Source of the DNA: Acidobacteriota bacterium
GTDB taxonomy: Bacteria > Acidobacteriota > Vicinamibacteria > Marinacidobacterales > Marinacidobacteraceae
DNA length: 64,000 bases
Assembly: GCA_022822745.1 (NCBI GenBank)
Contig: JAJEAO010000114.1
Coordinates: 69,613-133,612, forward strand
Direction: 5' to 3'
The notes under the pieces were generated by a model. It saw only the letters and a program-made list of their open reading frames with translations, was not told the origin of the DNA and did no database searches. Below are positions 9,615 through 63,258 of the stretch, in pieces; within the stretch, counting starts at the first letter, position 1; each line of letters begins with the position of its first letter. The translations under genes and the position numbers were made by a program.

Positions 9615-11273
9615 TCAGCCGACGGCTGCGATCCGGGCCCGCTCCTCCAGCGCGATCCGGCGCGTCTCGTCCGGCGAAACGACATCGAACGCCACCTCGC
9701 TGCCGGGCAGCGCCTGCGCGAGACGATGGAGGTCGGGCTCGACGACGACGCCCAGCTTGGGGTATCCGCCGGTCACGCCCTGATCCGGACCCATGACGAT
9801 CGGCTGGCCCGACGCCGGAACCTGGACGGCGCCCGGGGGGCTCCCGTCCGAGACGATCTCGTCCCCGCCGGGAGTGTGGGTCAGACGCGGCCCTTCGAGC
9901 CGCACGCCCATCCGGTTCGAATCGCCCGAAACCCGAAAGCGGAGGTTCGGGAGCTCGGCGAGGCACTGCGGCGGAAAGCAGTCCTCCTGGGGTCCGAGGC
10001 TGATCCGGAGCCGCAGGGCGCCGCTCGCGGGCAGCCGGATGGCCTCCGGCAGATAGCGGTGCTCGCGCGCTCCCGGAGGCTCCGGGCCCACCGGGAGCCG
10101 GTCGCCGGCGCGCAGCCGTCGTCCTTCCAGGCCGCCGAGCCGGGCGAGACGATAGGTGGAGCGCGACCCGAGAACCGCGGGCGCCGCGATGCCTCCGGCG
10201 ACCGCCAGATAGGGCCGGAGCCCCGCCGGCGGGCCGGGAAACCGCAGCACGCTGCCCGCCGGCGCGCGGATGGAGGTTCCGAGCGGAACCCGCCACGGCG
10301 GTCGGCCGGGGAGCTGGAGAACGGCGCGGTGGTCGGCGCCTCCGAGAGCGAAGAGCGCTGCGCCCCGAAAGCGCAGAACCGGCCCCACGAGCGTCATCTC
10401 GAGCCCGGCGGCGGTGTCCGGGTTCCCCACCGCCCGGTTGGCGAGGCGCAACGAGACCGGGTCCGAGGCCCCGGAGCGCGGGACGGCAAGGTGGAGGTGG
10501 CCGAAGCGGCCCAGATCCTGGACGGTGGTCAGCAGCCCGCCCTTCTCGACTTCGATCCGGGTGTCGAAGTCGCCTGTCGGCGCGGGCGCAGGCCGGGTGG
10601 AATCGCTCTCGGGCAGCCGGGAGACCGGCGCGAAGCGGACCACATCCCCCGCGAGGTAGGGGGTGGGGGGTCTCCGGTCGAGATTCCAGAGAAGGCGGGG
10701 ATCCACCCGGCCGAGCACCCGCCACCCGGTCGGCGCCTCCCACGGATAGATCCCGACCTGACGGCGGGCCGTGATCAGCGATCCGGCGGGGACGCGGAGC
10801 CGGGGCGTGGCGCGCCGGGACACATCGAGGCGCGGATCCATCATCCCCATGTAGGCGAAGCCGGGGACGAACCCCATCGCGAGCACGCGGTAGTCCCGCC
10901 CGGCGTGAAGCCGGACCACTTCCTCGACCGGGAGTCCCGACCGCTCGGCGAGGAGCGGCAGATCCTCCCCGTCGTACACGCACGGGATCTCGATGCGCCG
11001 GCGGGGCGGAGGGGCTTCCGGGCTCGCGCGGCGAGCGAGTCGCAGAGCGTGTTTCCGGATGGCCTTCGGGTCGGCGGCCGGGTCGTGGAGAACCAGAACC
11101 GAGCGGTAGCTGGGCAGCGACTCCCGGTAGCCCTCGAACGGCTCCTCGTCGAGGAGCTGCGCCAGCGCCGTCGCCCGCGCGTTCAGTTCGAGAGAGATCC
11201 GATCGCCGAACTCGACGACGAAGGCCGACTCGCCGCCGCCGCGGATCCGGGGTTCGGAGGGGGTTCCGGCCAC
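9615..11273 (-). CDS. pxpBC: 5-oxoprolinase subunits B and C fused (PxpB-PxpC; KipI-KipA / allophanate hydrolase subunits 1+2)
   Basis: N-terminal half aligns with KipI/PxpB and C-terminal half with KipA/PxpC (...GMMDPRLDVSRRATPR... and ...VMGPDQGVTGGYPKLGVV...). It lies immediately upstream of pxpA on the same strand. Confidence 0.8.
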   Translation of the reverse strand: MAGTPSEPRIRGGGESAFVVEFGDRISLELNARATALAQLLDEEPFEGYRESLPSYRSVLVLHDPAADPKAIRKHALRLARRASPEAPPPRRRIEIPCVYDGEDLPLLAERSGLPVEEVVRLHAGRDYRVLAMGFVPGFAYMGMMDPRLDVSRRATPRLRVPAGSLITARRQVGIYPWEAPTGWRVLGRVDPRLLWNLDRRPPTPYLAGDVVRFAPVSRLPESDSTRPAPAPTGDFDTRIEVEKGGLLTTVQDLGRFGHLHLAVPRSGASDPVSLRLANRAVGNPDTAAGLEMTLVGPVLRFRGAALFALGGADHRAVLQLPGRPPWRVPLGTSIRAPAGSVLRFPGPPAGLRPYLAVAGGIAAPAVLGSRSTYRLARLGGLEGRRLRAGDRLPVGPEPPGAREHRYLPEAIRLPASGALRLRISLGPQEDCFPPQCLAELPNLRFRVSGDSNRMGVRLEGPRLTHTPGGDEIVSDGSPPGAVQVPASGQPIVMGPDQGVTGGYPKLGVVVEPDLHRLAQALPGSEVAFDVVSPDETRRIALEERARIAAVG

Positions 11274-15411: not shown

Positions 15412-15864
15412 TCAGGTGAAGTGGATGTCGTCCCAGAACCGCCGGGCGGGAACCGGGAACCGCACGACCGCCTCGGCCGGCCCGACGCGGCCAGCGCGCA
15501 CGGCGAGATCGAACGCTTCCCCGGTCCCCGGGCAGCGAGTCGGGGTGACGCCATCGGTCCCGAGGAGGAGCGGAATCGCCAGGGCGTCCCAGGCGCAGTT
15601 CGCCCAGTAGCTCCCGCTTGGCGTCTCCACCCGGAAGCCGGTGCGAGCCCCGGCGAACGGATGGGCCATGAGGACGCTGCCCGCCGAGTCGAGAACGAGG
15701 ACGTGAGCGGCGGCGAGGGACTCGAGCGCCCGGGTCACCCGTTCCAGCGGGACGCGGAGTCCGGCGGCGAGTTCGGACGGCGTCGGCGTCGCGCCCCGTT
15801 CACGGATGGCGCGGAACAGGCGGCCCCGCATCCGCCACGCGAAGTCCGAGGGGGTCGCGCTCAT
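15412..15864 (-). CDS. alkylmercury (organomercurial) lyase MerB-family protein, possibly truncated by premature TGA
   Basis: YWANCAWDALAIPLLLG matches the MerB C96/D99 block (YAWCALDTLIFPALIG), and RCPGTGEAF matches the C159 block (HCAATGAP). Start ATG overlaps the DoxX stop. Start chosen at internal Met 15864 of ORF 15412..16254. Confidence 0.6.
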   Translation of the reverse strand: MSATPSDFAWRMRGRLFRAIRERGATPTPSELAAGLRVPLERVTRALESLAAAHVLVLDSAGSVLMAHPFAGARTGFRVETPSGSYWANCAWDALAIPLLLGTDGVTPTRCPGTGEAFDLAVRAGRVGPAEAVVRFPVPARRFWDDIHFT

Positions 15865-16313
15865 CACCCTGGCGGGGATCCTGGGGAGCGGCGCCGCGCC
15901 AACCAGGCGTCGAGACTCCAGCGGTCGTCGCCGTGGAGCGCGAGCAGGAGGACGAGGAGCAGGGTGCGCGGGACCACGTGGGCGGAGAAATCGAAGAGCG
16001 GATCGAGAAGGAGATGCCCGAAGGTGACCAGGATCAGAACGCCGCCGAGGCCAGCGGCGGCAGGAAGCCGCCGCCAGCCGAGGAGCAGGAGCGCGCCGCC
16101 GCCGAGTTCCACGAACGGGACCGTTGTTCCCGCGATCCAGAGCGACCACGCCGGCAGGAGAGTGTCCGCGTAGGGCTCCACGAAGAGCGTCCGGGCGTGC
16201 TGCGTCGCCCCCAGCGAGAAGACCTTCCACCACCCGGCCGCGGCGAAGATCCATCCGAGTACGACCCGGACGACGAGCGCCGCCAGCGCCCGCGCGTCCT
16301 GTCGTGATCCCAT
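15864..16313 (-). CDS. DoxX-family integral membrane protein
   Basis: About 150 aa with hydrophobic helices typical of DoxX (PF07681-like ...VRVVLGWIFAAAGWWKV...). Its stop overlaps the MerB-like start by 1 nt. Confidence 0.65.
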   Translation of the reverse strand: MGSRQDARALAALVVRVVLGWIFAAAGWWKVFSLGATQHARTLFVEPYADTLLPAWSLWIAGTTVPFVELGGGALLLLGWRRLPAAAGLGGVLILVTFGHLLLDPLFDFSAHVVPRTLLLVLLLALHGDDRWSLDAWLARRRSPGSPPG

Positions 16314-17629: not shown

Positions 17630-18058
17630 GTGATCGAGTACGACAAGTTCCGGCGCTCGCTCGACCGCCTGGAGGAGCAGATCGCTCACTATCGGGGACT
17701 CGGTCCCTCGGCGCCCCGACTGACCCGGGAAGGCATCGCCGAGTCGGTGATCCGGCGTTTCGAGATCTGCTACGACCGCCTCTGCAAGGTGCTGCAGCGG
17801 CACCTGGTGGAAGCGCTCGGAATCCCTCATCCTCCCCACAGCCCGAATCCGATCCCGCGACTGGCTCACGAGAACGACCTCTTCGAGGCCCCCATCGAAC
17901 AGTGGATGCGTTACTCGCGCGCCCGGATCGCCACGCAGCGCGACGGCGACCGCGACCAGGCGCGCGCCGCACTGGACATCATTCCGGACTTCCTCGACGA
18001 CGCGATCACCCTGTACGAGACGATGACGAGAGAGCGATGGAATCTGCGCCAGCCATAG
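17630..18058 (+). CDS. HEPN-domain protein, HI0074-family nucleotidyltransferase substrate-binding protein (HEPN/MNT toxin-antitoxin component)
   Basis: 142 aa; sequence pattern (...RRFEICYDRLCKVLQRHL...) fits the HI0074/HEPN family. It overlaps the downstream MNT gene by 22 nt. Confidence 0.7.
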   Translation: MIEYDKFRRSLDRLEEQIAHYRGLGPSAPRLTREGIAESVIRRFEICYDRLCKVLQRHLVEALGIPHPPHSPNPIPRLAHENDLFEAPIEQWMRYSRARIATQRDGDRDQARAALDIIPDFLDDAITLYETMTRERWNLRQP

Positions 18059-18393
18059 ACATCACCCCTGCCGCCCGTCGGGTTGTCCTGGACCTCATCG
18101 CGAAGCACCTGCCGAACACCGAGGTCTGGCCCTACGGCTCGCGGGTCCGGGGAACTTCCACTCCGAAGTCCGACCTCGACCTCGTGGCCCTTGCGGAGCC
18201 CGACAGCGTCGCCGCCGTCGCCGAGCTTCGGGAGGCATTCGAGGAGAGTTTCCTCCCGTTCCGCGTGGACCTCTGGGTCTGGAAGGAGATCCCTGCGTCG
18301 TTCCGGCAGCAGGTCGCGATGCGCCACGCCGTGCTGGCGCACGGCGACGAATCGAACGAACGCGAAACACAGTCAACGGCAGACGCAGACTGA
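18037..18393 (+). CDS. minimal nucleotidyltransferase (MNT, HI0073-like) partner of HEPN protein
   Basis: GS-x9-12-DxD motif: WPYGSRVRGTSTPKSDLDLVAL; 118 aa. Start chosen at internal Met MESAPAID within the long artefactual ORF 16450..18393. Confidence 0.75.
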   Translation: MESAPAIDITPAARRVVLDLIAKHLPNTEVWPYGSRVRGTSTPKSDLDLVALAEPDSVAAVAELREAFEESFLPFRVDLWVWKEIPASFRQQVAMRHAVLAHGDESNERETQSTADAD

Positions 18394-56935: not shown

Positions 56936-57664
56936 TCACCGCTTCGCGGCGAGGATGGCGGCGCGGCGACGGATGACCCCGGGCGAGAACCACGAGTCCA
57001 GAAAGCCCCGCCGCTTCGCCTCCCGCCCGGCGGAGGCGCGGGCGGCCGCGGCGGCGCGCAGCTCCCGCTTCGTGTGGGCGTAGGCGCTCCGGGGGAGGGC
57101 GCCGAGTTCGGCCGCGAGGGCGGTGGCGCGGGCGAGAATCTCGTCGGCGGGCGCGAGTTCGTGGAGGAAACCGTTCTCCACCGCCTCCGCCGGCCCGGTC
57201 AGCGCCCCCTGCAGGAGGATCCGGGGGCGACGGCGCCGGGGAATCGCGGAGCGCAGGATCTCGAACCCCATCGCCGGGAAGGTGACGCCGAGCGAGACCT
57301 CGGAGACCCCGACGCGGTAGCGGCCCTCCGCGCCGATCCGGAAGTCGCAGGCGGCGGCGAACAGCGCGCCTCCCGCCACCGCGTGTCCGTTCACGGCGGC
57401 GACCGTCGGGGCCGGAAACAGGAACAGATCCCGGAGCACCGCCTCGAAACGGTCCACGAAGTCCCCCATCGCCGCGCGGTCCTCGGGGAGGCCGCCGAGA
57501 TCGAGTCCGGCCGAGAAGAATCGCCCGGACCCGGTCAGCACGAGGGCCGCGTTCTCCTGCATCGCCCGCTCCAGCCCGGAGGCGACGAAGTCGAGGAACG
57601 CGGGACCGATCGCGTTCGCCGGCCCGTGATCGAGCTCGAGAACCAGCGCCCCGGAAGCGGTCAT
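56936..57664 (-). CDS. enoyl-CoA hydratase/isomerase family protein
   Basis: Crotonase fold blocks ...TVAAVNGHAVAGGALFAAACDFRI...; 242 aa. It lies downstream of the peroxiredoxin gene on the same strand. Confidence 0.8.
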   Translation of the reverse strand: MTASGALVLELDHGPANAIGPAFLDFVASGLERAMQENAALVLTGSGRFFSAGLDLGGLPEDRAAMGDFVDRFEAVLRDLFLFPAPTVAAVNGHAVAGGALFAAACDFRIGAEGRYRVGVSEVSLGVTFPAMGFEILRSAIPRRRRPRILLQGALTGPAEAVENGFLHELAPADEILARATALAAELGALPRSAYAHTKRELRAAAAARASAGREAKRRGFLDSWFSPGVIRRRAAILAAKR

Positions 57665-57706: not shown

Positions 57707-58324
57707 CTACTCGAGCGATTCGAGGGCTTCGAGGAGCGGGGCGTAGTCCTCCACGATCTGGTAGTCGTAGTTCACGTAGCGGAGGACGCCCTCCCGATCC
57801 ACGACGAAGGTCGCGCGGGAGGCGTAGCGGGCTCCGTTGATCTCGATCGGCTCGACGCCGTAGGCGTCCACGACCTGGCTGTCCCGGTCGGAGAGGAGCA
57901 CCAGCGGAGGCAGTTCGCCATCGGCTGCCTGCGGGCGGCCGCCCTTGTCGGCGGAGAAGCTCTCCAGCCAGTTCCACTGCGAGAACGGGGAGTCCACACT
58001 GATGCCGAAGACCATCGCGCCTGCATCCAGAAACTTCTGGATGTCGTCCCGGTAGGACGAAAACTGGCGGGTTCAACCACCGGTCCAATCGGCCACGTAG
58101 AACGCGAGCACGATGTTCTTCTCGCCGATCACATCGTGGAGCGAGATCTGCGTCGCTCCGGGACGCTCGCCGGCGGTGGAAGCGAGGGGATTCGGGAAGG
58201 CGGGAGCGCGGTCCCCCACCTTCAGGGGACCGTCCTGGGCCGCCGCGGGAGCGGGAGAGCCGGCCGCCAGGACGACGACGCCGAGGAGCGGCGCGAGCCA
58301 GCGCAGCGGGGAGGGGCGCTTCAT
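57707..58324 (-). CDS. periplasmic peroxiredoxin (BCP/PrxQ-like, AhpC-TSA/Redoxin fold) with in-frame TGA (58073..58075) at the peroxidatic-Cys position; candidate selenoprotein (alternatively a nonsense-disrupted gene)
   Basis: ORFs 58073..58408 and 57707..58015 are in the same frame with only one stop between them. Joined translation reads ...NIVLAFYVADWTGG[TGA]TRQFSSYRDDIQKFLDAGAMVFGISVDSPFSQWNW..., i.e. the Prx T-x-x-C motif with TGA at C. Signal peptide MKRPSPLRWLAPLLGVVVLAAG. GGAGG lies 10 nt before ATG 58324. Confidence 0.6.
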
Positions 58325-58521
58325 GGGACAACCTCCGGGAGGAAACGGGATCCGGACCCTGGGCGGGTTCCGGTGACGAATGATGGCCGGTTTCGCCGGG
58401 GCGGGCAACCGGGACCGGGCGGACGGGAGAGGGACGCCGCGGGGGGAGCGCGGGCGGTGCTATTCTGATTCTTTGCCCGCTGGCGCGGCGGGCGACCCGC
58501 CTGAGAGAGGTTGATGCATCC

Positions 58522-62007: not shown

Positions 62008-62126
62008 CCACTCGCCCCCGCCAGGCCCGGCCATCCGATCCCGGGGAGCCCTCGGGCGTCCATCGGGGTTAGCATCCCGTGCGCAAACGGGGCGGGCGAG
62101 ACGGGCCAGTCAGGGAGAACGAGATC

Positions 62127-63258
62127 GTGAAGCACGAACTCCTGGAGCGATTCCAGGCGCTGACGCCCCGGATCGGGGTCGTCCGGGGGTTTCTTTGACC
62201 CGGACGGACTGGCGAAGGAGATCGCGGAACTCGACGACCGACTGACCGACGCCTCGGTCTGGTCCGCCTCCGGCGACGGCCAGAGGCTCTCGCGCCGCCG
62301 GGCCGCGCTGGCGGCGGAGCGCTCCCGCGGCGCCGACTTCGAGGAGGTTCTCGAGGAAGTCGAGACCCTGGTGGAATGGGCGCGCGAGGGTGAATCCGTG
62401 GAAGAGGATCTCGCCGAACATCTGAAGCGGCTGGAAGCGGCGCTGGCCGACCTGGAGCTTCGTCAGCTCTTCGCCGGAGAGCACGACACGGAGGACGCGA
62501 TCCTCACGATCAACCCGGGCGCCGGGGGGACCGACGCCCAGGACTGGGCGGGCATGCTGCTCTCCATGTACATCCGGTGGGCGCGCAGCCACGGCTTCGA
62601 CGTCCGGTTGCTCGACGAGCAGCCCGGGGACGAAGCCGGAATCAAGAGCGCGACGCTCGAGGTCCGTGGCGACCACGCCTACGGTCGGCTTCGGGTGGAG
62701 TCCGGCGTCCACCGCCTCGTGCGCATGTCGCCGTTCGACACCCAGCACCGAAGGCACACCTCCTTCGCTTCCGTCGCGGCGTTTCCCGACCTCGACGACC
62801 GGATCGAGATCGAGGTGGACGAGAACGACCTGCGGATCGACACCTTCCGGGCGAGCGGCAAGGGCGGACAGCATGTGAACGTGACCGACTCCGCGGTGCG
62901 CATCACCCATCTCCCGACGGGCCTGGTCGTGTCGTGCCAGAACGAGCGGTCGCAGCACCGCAACCGCGACAGCGCGATGAAGGTGCTGCGCGCGCGGCTC
63001 TACGACCGCGCGGTCCAGGAGGCCAAGGCCCGCGAGGAGGCGGCCAAGGAGGGCCTCGGGGAGAACACCTTCGGGAACCAGATGCGGTCCTACGTGTTCC
63101 AGCCCTACCGGATGGTCAAGGACCACCGAACGAACCACCAGGTCGGTGACGTGGACCGGGTCATGGGGGGCGACCTCGACGGCTTCATCGAGGCCGGGCT
63201 CGTCCTCTCGGGCGGGACCCGGCGGGGACCGGAGAGAGCGGCCGAGCCCGGAGCGTAG
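62127..63258 (+). CDS. prfB: peptide chain release factor 2 with programmed +1 ribosomal frameshift at CTT-TGA-C (62193..62199)
   Basis: GTG 62127 is followed by 23 codons ending ...GGG TTT CTT TGA C with an upstream SD-like GGGGG, the classical prfB autoregulatory site. The +1 frame continues into ORF 62371..63258, which carries SPF and GGQ motifs (...RASGKGGQHVNVTDSAVRITH...). Confidence 0.85.

Follow-up and report, generated by a model that had tools for sequence, protein, structure and literature searches.

A peroxiredoxin gene of Acidobacteriota with an in-frame UGA at its peroxidatic position: a probable selenoprotein

The peroxiredoxin locus and its product

The DNA studied here is a window of 64,000 nucleotides, meaning the whole stretch that was analyzed, from contig JAJEAO010000114.1 of an Acidobacteriota bacterium. 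It lies on a 180-kb metagenomic scaffold (ENA ERZ23491076, KELL22-1 scaffold_101). The minus strand of the window carries a gene of 205 codons and 618 nt (57707..58324) that encodes a peroxiredoxin of the AhpC/TSA fold resembling the BCP/PrxQ group. Its reading frame runs from an ATG at 58324..58322 to a TAG at 57709..57707 and is interrupted solely by a TGA at codon 84 (58073..58075 on the minus strand), which occupies the peroxidatic position and at which selenocysteine (Sec) would be inserted. The residues flanking this codon are ...NIVLAFYVADWTGG-TGA-TRQFSSYRDDIQKFL. An earlier reading of the same DNA (the original prediction) had joined two minus-strand open reading frames (ORFs) into one frame broken by a single TGA. 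The ORF list of the window returns both halves at the same coordinates, 58073..58408 and 57707..58015.

Public gene calls divide the gene into products of 83 and 102 amino acids in all four assemblies that contain it. Taken literally, these calls describe a truly split gene, in which translation ends at the UGA after a short N-terminal peptide that is exported, and the 102-residue ORF (58015..57707) is translated separately from an ATG that does exist at 58015. However, the stretch of 19 codons that separates the UGA from this ATG (TRQFSSYRDDIQKFLDAGA) is highly conserved as protein, and in frame, in all orthologues. Called fragments from other genomes begin at differing places (64-106 amino acids), so no internal start is conserved. 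Each half on its own would lack part of the thioredoxin fold, and neither would contain the catalytic residue. A split gene is thus very unlikely.

The family of the joined protein is clear, from sequence, when Cys is substituted at codon 84. It then scores 89.1 bits (E = 2.8e-25) with Pfam AhpC-TSA (PF00578), for which the cut-off is 26, over profile positions 1-124 of 124, and 58.3 bits against a cut-off of 26.6 with Redoxin. The original prediction had the C-terminal ORF continue the peroxiredoxin fold, and the match spans the profile end to end. The nearest solved chains by sequence are archaeal BCP/PrxQ proteins (3drn, 3hjp and 2ywn, with E values from 5.5e-15 to 9e-14). The protein is not a typical member of this group, however, because it has Ser at position +5 from codon 84 and scores 48.8 bits against 140 for NF006960. 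No NCBIfam model reaches its cut-off with this protein.

Alignments with Cys-containing homologues place the TGA on the nearly invariant peroxidatic Cys column, the position claimed for it from the BCP/PrxQ motif. One alignment holds 95 TGA-form and 51 Cys-form sequences, all distinct and phylogenetically non-independent, and Cys fills this column in 49 of the 51 Cys forms. Both other residues expected to act in catalysis are kept. Thr81 (58082..58084, minus strand), which belongs to the TxxU(C) peroxidatic motif and lies at -3 from the Sec position, is present in 95 of 95 TGA forms. Arg170 (57815..57817, minus strand), the conserved active-site Arg of peroxiredoxins, is invariant in a second alignment, A1, and Arg is counted in 144 of the 146 sequences of the first. 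Relative to the PxxxTxxC-plus-Arg active site, the window protein therefore keeps Thr81 and Arg170, has its peroxidatic Cys replaced by the TGA-encoded residue, and has its Pro replaced by Val.

This last substitution, at position -7 (58094-58096), is general among the TGA forms, which have Val in 80 cases, Ile in 13, Leu in two and Pro in none. Pro is found there in 34 of the 51 Cys forms, and the Pro of the PxxxTxxU motif is described as highly conserved (PMC13188914). The resolving Cys of BCP proteins at +5 is likewise present in none of the 95 TGA forms, versus 36 of 51 Cys forms. The absence of both residues may be an active-site change linked to Sec, or may simply reflect common ancestry. 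The mature window protein contains no Cys at all. Because it has Ser at +5 and lacks other Cys residues, it likely works like a 1-Cys-type BCP rather than like the usual atypical-2-Cys BCP. The UxxC, UxxU and UxxS motif classes listed in PMC13188914, which characterize peroxiredoxin-like thiol:disulfide oxidoreductases and PRX_like2 proteins, are absent; the sequence reads U-T-R-Q-F-S, and its +3 residue is neither Cys, Sec nor Ser.

Three features in and around the gene had been pointed out in the original prediction and are seen here too: a good ribosome-binding site, a signal peptide and a downstream enoyl-CoA hydratase gene. A Shine-Dalgarno-like GGAGG (58332..58336, minus strand) lies 7 nt upstream of the ATG, and a GGAGG or GAGG element also precedes the start codon in the orthologues. 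Codons 1-29 (MKRPSPLRWLAPLLGVVVLAAGSPAPAAA; 58238..58324, minus strand) read as a predicted Sec-type (general secretory pathway) signal peptide, with cleavage probably falling between AAA and QD. The N terminus of every orthologue, read by eye, combines basic residues in the n-region with a hydrophobic core and an AxA-Q motif. The peroxiredoxin would accordingly be exported.

The enoyl-CoA hydratase gene (56936..57664, minus strand; Pfam ECH_1/ECH_2) begins 42 nt after the peroxiredoxin stop codon and is a possible co-transcript. It follows the peroxiredoxin gene in L001-L008, L011 and L102, where such labels denote the related loci collected for this analysis. An operon of the two genes is plausible because they share a strand, are separated by only the 42-nt gap and keep their synteny in most orthologues. 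Within the peroxiredoxin itself, alignment A1 reveals a lineage-specific insertion of 14 residues relative to other peroxiredoxins (D126-P139, DKGGRPQAADGELP; 57908..57949, minus strand). The sequence of this insertion varies among orthologues.

Conservation of the UGA codon and of the frame beyond it

Sixteen orthologues were read at the DNA level. They share 54-79% identity and come from loci of 56-72% GC, and those that carry taxonomic labels are metagenome-assembled genomes (MAGs) of Acidobacteriota/Vicinamibacteria. A genome scan supplied eight close orthologues at 67-79% identity, all from such MAGs, some of which are complete chromosomes; the orthologue is carried by the chromosomes OZ241322.1, OZ241856.1, OZ220713.1 and OY821641.1. 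Two more came from a metagenome scan, and look-ups of database fragments added five more that extend down to 54% identity and to 56% locus GC. Codon 84 is TGA in 16 of 16, and in each the frame remains intact to a common C terminus, with no other stops or frameshifts. A divergent upstream greA-nfeD-band7 cluster and the peroxiredoxin-hydratase pair are retained in ten orthologues, which is most of them. This shared synteny identifies the ten loci as true orthologues.

By default, an in-frame stop would be read as a nonsense mutation that marks a pseudogene in decay, or else as a sequencing or assembly error, and a single base change is enough to turn TGC or TGT into TGA. Miscalling of a Cys codon had been named as an alternative from the outset. 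However, four assemblies, from two biosamples and two Sequence Read Archive (SRA) runs, carry the 618-nt gene without a single difference. Its TGA is shared by orthologues that have diverged to a dS of about 0.5-1.2, and pairwise dN/dS after the TGA is 0.18-0.39 at a dS near 0.7, in the same range as before it. Mutation and error are effectively refuted by these data. Recoding was argued at first to be more parsimonious than a chance nonsense mutation, and this view is borne out by the universal TGA, the purifying selection downstream and the conserved RNA structure described below.

Close relatives with TGC or TGT at this codon were named in advance as evidence that would speak against recoding. 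None was encountered: no Cys-coded orthologue occurs among 37 protein database clusters and the 16 loci. The 37 clusters were recovered with the sequence that follows the TGA as query. They have 54-100% identity to it, and all are fragments of 64-106 amino acids, none of them full-length. A full-length query with Cys substituted, searched against 5.8 billion proteins, returned nothing above 39% identity, which is the value for the best full-length Cys homologue. Because Cys matches do not exceed this value and the post-TGA clusters are all fragments, the family appears to exist solely in the TGA form.

UGA-reassigned genetic codes exist in some bacteria, and genome-wide reading of UGA as, for example, Trp or Gly would also leave the frame open. 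Here this explanation is refuted by stop codon usage and has a negligible probability. TGA ends 36 of the 50 genes called on the contig, and prfB in the window carries a CUU-UGA-C autoregulatory frameshift site, so UGA is a normal stop in this organism. A scan of the 64-kb window for TGAs with coding-like GC content at third codon positions on both flanks recovered the peroxiredoxin site and two ordinary gene junctions only, whereas reassignment would predict other coding-flanked in-frame TGAs. Extending the scan to the orthologous loci likewise produced gene junctions and no second selenoprotein that would back the Sec trait.

The prfB gene (release factor 2; Pfam PCRF/RF-1) lies at about 62120-63258 on the plus strand and is called as a truncated product of 286 amino acids. 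Its classical +1 programmed frameshift site, GGGGG-UUU-CUU-UGA-C at 62193-62199 (+), is known biology. It is the second in-frame UGA recoding in the window, and it is likewise misread by gene finders.

RNA structure after the UGA and the decoding of codon 84

Two hairpins follow the UGA in the mRNA. The first, H1 (58044..58060, minus strand; +13 to +29 from the UGA), is UCGUCCU-ACC-GGGACGA, with 7 base pairs including a U-G pair and a triloop. Its predicted stability is -9.1 kcal/mol (z = -2.9). It begins 13 nt after the UGA, and the distance from the UGA to its loop is 19 nt. The second, H2 (58024..58043, minus strand; +30 to +49), abuts H1 directly and reads CAUCCAGA-AGUU-UCUGGAUG, with 8 base pairs and a tetraloop at 58035..58032. 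Its stability is -10.4 kcal/mol (z = -4.6), and 37 nt separate the UGA from its loop.

RNAalifold predicts H1 and H2 together in all orthologues. The stem of H1 is retained through one-sided changes (U-A to U-G), and its loop varies between ACC, ACA, AUC and AUG, with no G at loop position 1 or 2. The nucleotides of H2 are invariant in 15 of 16 orthologues, and the lone change, an A to G in L097, keeps a G-U pair. The invariant H2 sequence includes the codons TTT and GAT, which would be expected to be disfavored at 56-72% GC. Synonymous variation is low across codons +3 to +16, where 10 of 12 columns with an invariant residue use a single codon, versus 17 of 77 elsewhere (Fisher p = 7e-5). Folding of the 44-nt segment after the UGA gives -18.6 to -21.3 kcal/mol for the TGA forms; the corresponding values for eight Cys relatives, which have no common structure, are -4.4 to -14.5 kcal/mol.

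The published consensus for the bacterial selenocysteine insertion sequence (bSECIS) calls for a loop of 3-9 nt, a stem of 4-16 base pairs, a spacing of 16-37 nt and a minimum free energy of -7.5 kcal/mol or below, as well as a G within the first two loop positions that is usually followed by G or U (PMC13188914). H2 passes every item, with its spacing exactly at the 37-nt limit. The original prediction had offered the UCGUCC/GGACGA hairpin, which is part of H1, as the bSECIS-like element. This hairpin does exist, starts 13 nt after the UGA and is conserved, but it fails the rule for a loop G. The assignment of the SECIS therefore probably needs revision or extension, because H1 fails this rule, and H2 fits it and is the element under the strongest sequence constraint. 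H2 is likely the best candidate for the part of the SECIS that binds SelB, since its AGUU loop is invariant and matches the bacterial consensus. H1 would then be an accessory helix or a remodeled ancestral one.

A more specific proposal can be put forward only tentatively. The two hairpins may form a composite, non-canonical SECIS in which H2 binds SelB while H1, as a spacer or stacking helix, is indispensable. This SECIS would serve the production of a 1-Sec peroxiredoxin that is exported, free of Cys and dependent on a reductant outside the cytoplasm. If so, marine Acidobacteriota/Vicinamibacteria-related lineages use a SECIS geometry unlike that of E. coli and unlike that of the related metagenome family described next. 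A further hairpin around the UGA itself resembles a terminator (58066-58081, minus strand; GGUGG-UUGAAC-CCGCC followed by AGUUUU). Its 3' arm differs in all orthologues, and it is probably a chance pairing.

The metagenome scan also yielded about 80 loci (L013-L090) with homologues at 33-42% identity, most of which carry the motif AFYVLAFTGG-U-TKELKAYQAD. Among 109 gene copies from the first 90 loci, 101 have TGA at the position aligned to codon 84 and eight have TGC or TGT. About 90 of the TGA copies belong to this related family. Its mRNAs have a single canonical SECIS after the UGA, GGCGUAUC-A-GGC-U-GAUA(U)CGCC. Over 74 distinct sequences this hairpin is paired to 96%, and compensatory changes occur at two of its pairs (G-C to C-G or A-U, and U-A to C-G). 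H1 of the window family sits on nearly the same codons as this canonical SECIS. In a crude neighbor-joining tree, two Cys forms (P0001 and L023) are nearest to the window family, and together with it they are nested in a larger group that also holds the metagenome Sec family. The tree has short internal branches, was built without bootstraps and does not decide between one and two origins of Sec.

Members of the related family often occur as tandem TGA paralogues spaced 100-300 nt apart, each with a nearly identical SECIS hairpin. The paired motifs are AFYVLAFTGG-U-TKEL and AFYI[KR]A[FS]TPG-U-T[KR]E[IL]. One example is the pair at L017:10001-10438 and 10599-11042. Further pairs are found at L015, L020, L022, L024, L025, L026, L028, L029, L031 and L033, and also at L039, L041, L046, L050, L055, L059, L071 and L075.

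As expected of a bacterial selenoprotein gene, the window gene shows a Sec/Cys pair, a conserved UGA with purifying selection downstream, and a bSECIS stem-loop in the form of H2, at the spacing limit. Very probably, then, the gene encodes one exported Sec peroxiredoxin of 205 residues. UGA84 would be decoded co-translationally as Sec by SelB and Sec-tRNA(Sec), under the direction of an mRNA signal immediately after the UGA that consists of the abutting H1 and H2. H2 would be the likely SelB-binding element, and H1 a spacer or a remodeled ancestral SECIS. After export by a cleavable N-terminal signal peptide, Sec84 would attack peroxide with the help of Thr81 and Arg170 and be converted to a selenenic acid. 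Because there is no resolving Cys, an external thiol reductant would be needed, and this partner presumably reduces the selenenic acid directly in a 1-Cys-type mechanism. Thioredoxin-like proteins of the periplasm are candidates for this role. About 8 kb downstream of the Sec peroxiredoxin in L102 lies a gene (L102:18192-19082, minus strand) for a 296-residue protein that resembles Redoxin and Thioredoxin_8 domains and is a possible candidate for an extracytoplasmic reductant.

Several observations weigh against this interpretation. Neither hairpin alone is a textbook SECIS, since H2 lies at the extreme of the permitted spacing and H1 has the usual spacing without the loop G. H2 shows no compensatory double change among the 16 orthologues. 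Its support comes from conservation, and covariation offers no test because H2 hardly varies. Rfam searches of the whole window at the gathering threshold, and of 57900..58200 at E values up to 10, return two tRNAs and no SECIS-like family. The export of the protein and its use of an external reductant are inferred. Finally, selA, selB, selD and the gene for tRNA-Sec are found neither in the window, nor in a further stretch of about 3.7 kb of the contig, nor in loci L001-L094, to which the contig annotation adds L095 and L096, a negative that says little because only about 65 kb of a multi-megabase genome are covered.

ARAGORN finds no tRNA-Sec in the window or in the 94 loci L001-L094. Pfam annotation of about 65 kb of the source contig reveals no SelA, SelB-wing or AIRS domains. 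Comparison by tblastn of the window and the 94 loci with E. coli SelA, SelB and SelD probes, which provides leads only, gives one weak and irrelevant SelA-like match. This putative pyridoxal phosphate-dependent enzyme is in L068 (11725-12495, minus strand; 24% identity, E = 3e-5), where a peroxiredoxin of the metagenome family in its Cys form lies about 1.5 kb away. A search of the literature found nothing relevant on selenocysteine in Vicinamibacteria or on Marinacidobacterium.

These results, together with the indirect evidence for the identity of residue 84, leave some room for recoding to a residue other than Sec. Cys could be inserted by a tRNA-Sec-like tRNA-Cys(UCA) with SelB, or Ser or another amino acid by opal-suppressor allo-tRNAs. 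The selC* tRNA-Cys opal suppressors have been reported, as have possible nonsense-suppressor allo-tRNAs in Acidobacteria (PMC5389517). However, the selC* genes are from Firmicutes, Thermodesulfobacteria, Nitrospirae and Proteobacteria rather than Acidobacteria, and the genomes that had them also carried the full Sec apparatus (PMC5389517). A TGC codon would suffice for Cys, yet no Cys-coded orthologue occurs in the 37 database clusters or the 16 loci. Insertion of Ser at the catalytic position would abolish activity. Furthermore, a site-specific downstream hairpin is a hallmark of SelB-dependent decoding. Recoding to a residue other than Sec is therefore improbable, and decoding as Sec is preferred.

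Elsewhere in the window, a homologue of the organomercurial lyase MerB (about 15412-15864, minus strand) adjoins a DoxX/MauE-like membrane protein (15864-16313, minus strand). Also encoded in this stretch are a large AAA_22/DUF8426 protein and, at about 17630-18393, a nucleotidyltransferase/HEPN-like pair. The stretch could be an accessory or mobile region.

Relationship to known selenoproteins and peroxiredoxins

All 37 public clusters of this peroxiredoxin family are fragmentary, and gene callers cut its members into two meaningless pieces. Recognition of the intact gene gives marine and host-associated Acidobacteriota/Vicinamibacteria MAGs back an enzyme of antioxidant defense that their inventories lack, and marks these lineages as users of selenium. 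It also adds a peroxiredoxin, exported by prediction, that combines Sec with the lack of both Cys and the motif Pro and whose two-hairpin SECIS lies at the edge of the consensus. The family should be a useful test case for SECIS predictors and for the question of why Sec replaces Cys in compartments exposed to peroxide. The general picture of bacterial selenoproteins is unchanged, as peroxiredoxins are among the commonest families that occur in Sec and Cys forms.

Peroxiredoxins with a TxxU motif are an experimentally verified class of bacterial selenoproteins and one of the commoner Sec/Cys families (PMC13188914, PMC1794560), as the original prediction had assumed in appealing to known bacterial Prx-like proteins with Sec. 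Sec-utilizing Acidobacteria are also on record (PMC13188914, PMC1794560, PMC12013277). The prototype, as cited in PMC13188914, is PrxU of Eubacterium acidaminophilum (Sohling et al. 2001). PrxU and the window protein share the AhpC/TSA fold, Sec in place of the peroxidatic Cys within T-x-x-U, and a SECIS inside the ORF after the UGA. However, PrxU is AhpC/Prx1-like, whereas the window protein is BCP/PrxQ-like, with a predicted signal peptide, Val for the motif Pro and no other Cys. The window protein is also not an equivalog of PrxU, because it scores 41.8 bits against the 270-bit cut-off of NCBIfam NF040737.

Compared to BCP/PrxQ proteins (E. coli Bcp, NF006960; Sulfolobus Bcp1, 3drn, and Bcp4, 3hjp; and S. 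tokodaii 2ywn), the window protein has the same length class, the same Thr and Arg and the same FYxxDxTxxC-T context. It differs in its putative Sec for Cys, its Ser at +5, its 14-residue insertion and its predicted export signal. The related metagenome family likewise has TGA at this column, Val, Ile or Leu at -7 and no Cys at +5, and a SECIS occupies the same codons. In contrast to the window family, it has one hairpin with the loop A-GGC-U and a bulged U, located 22-23 nt from the UGA, and no H2.

At the RNA level, H2 resembles the bSECIS of the bSECISearch model and of the E. coli fdhF type in its 4-nt loop, in the G at loop position 2 that is followed by U, and in its 8-bp stem. The departures from this consensus are the location of H2 at the 37-nt limit, the lack of a bulged U, and the extra H1, with its G-less loop, in the usual SECIS position. 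The window gene thus adds a new, so far unannotated member to a known kind, the selenocysteine peroxiredoxins, and is not a new kind of system.

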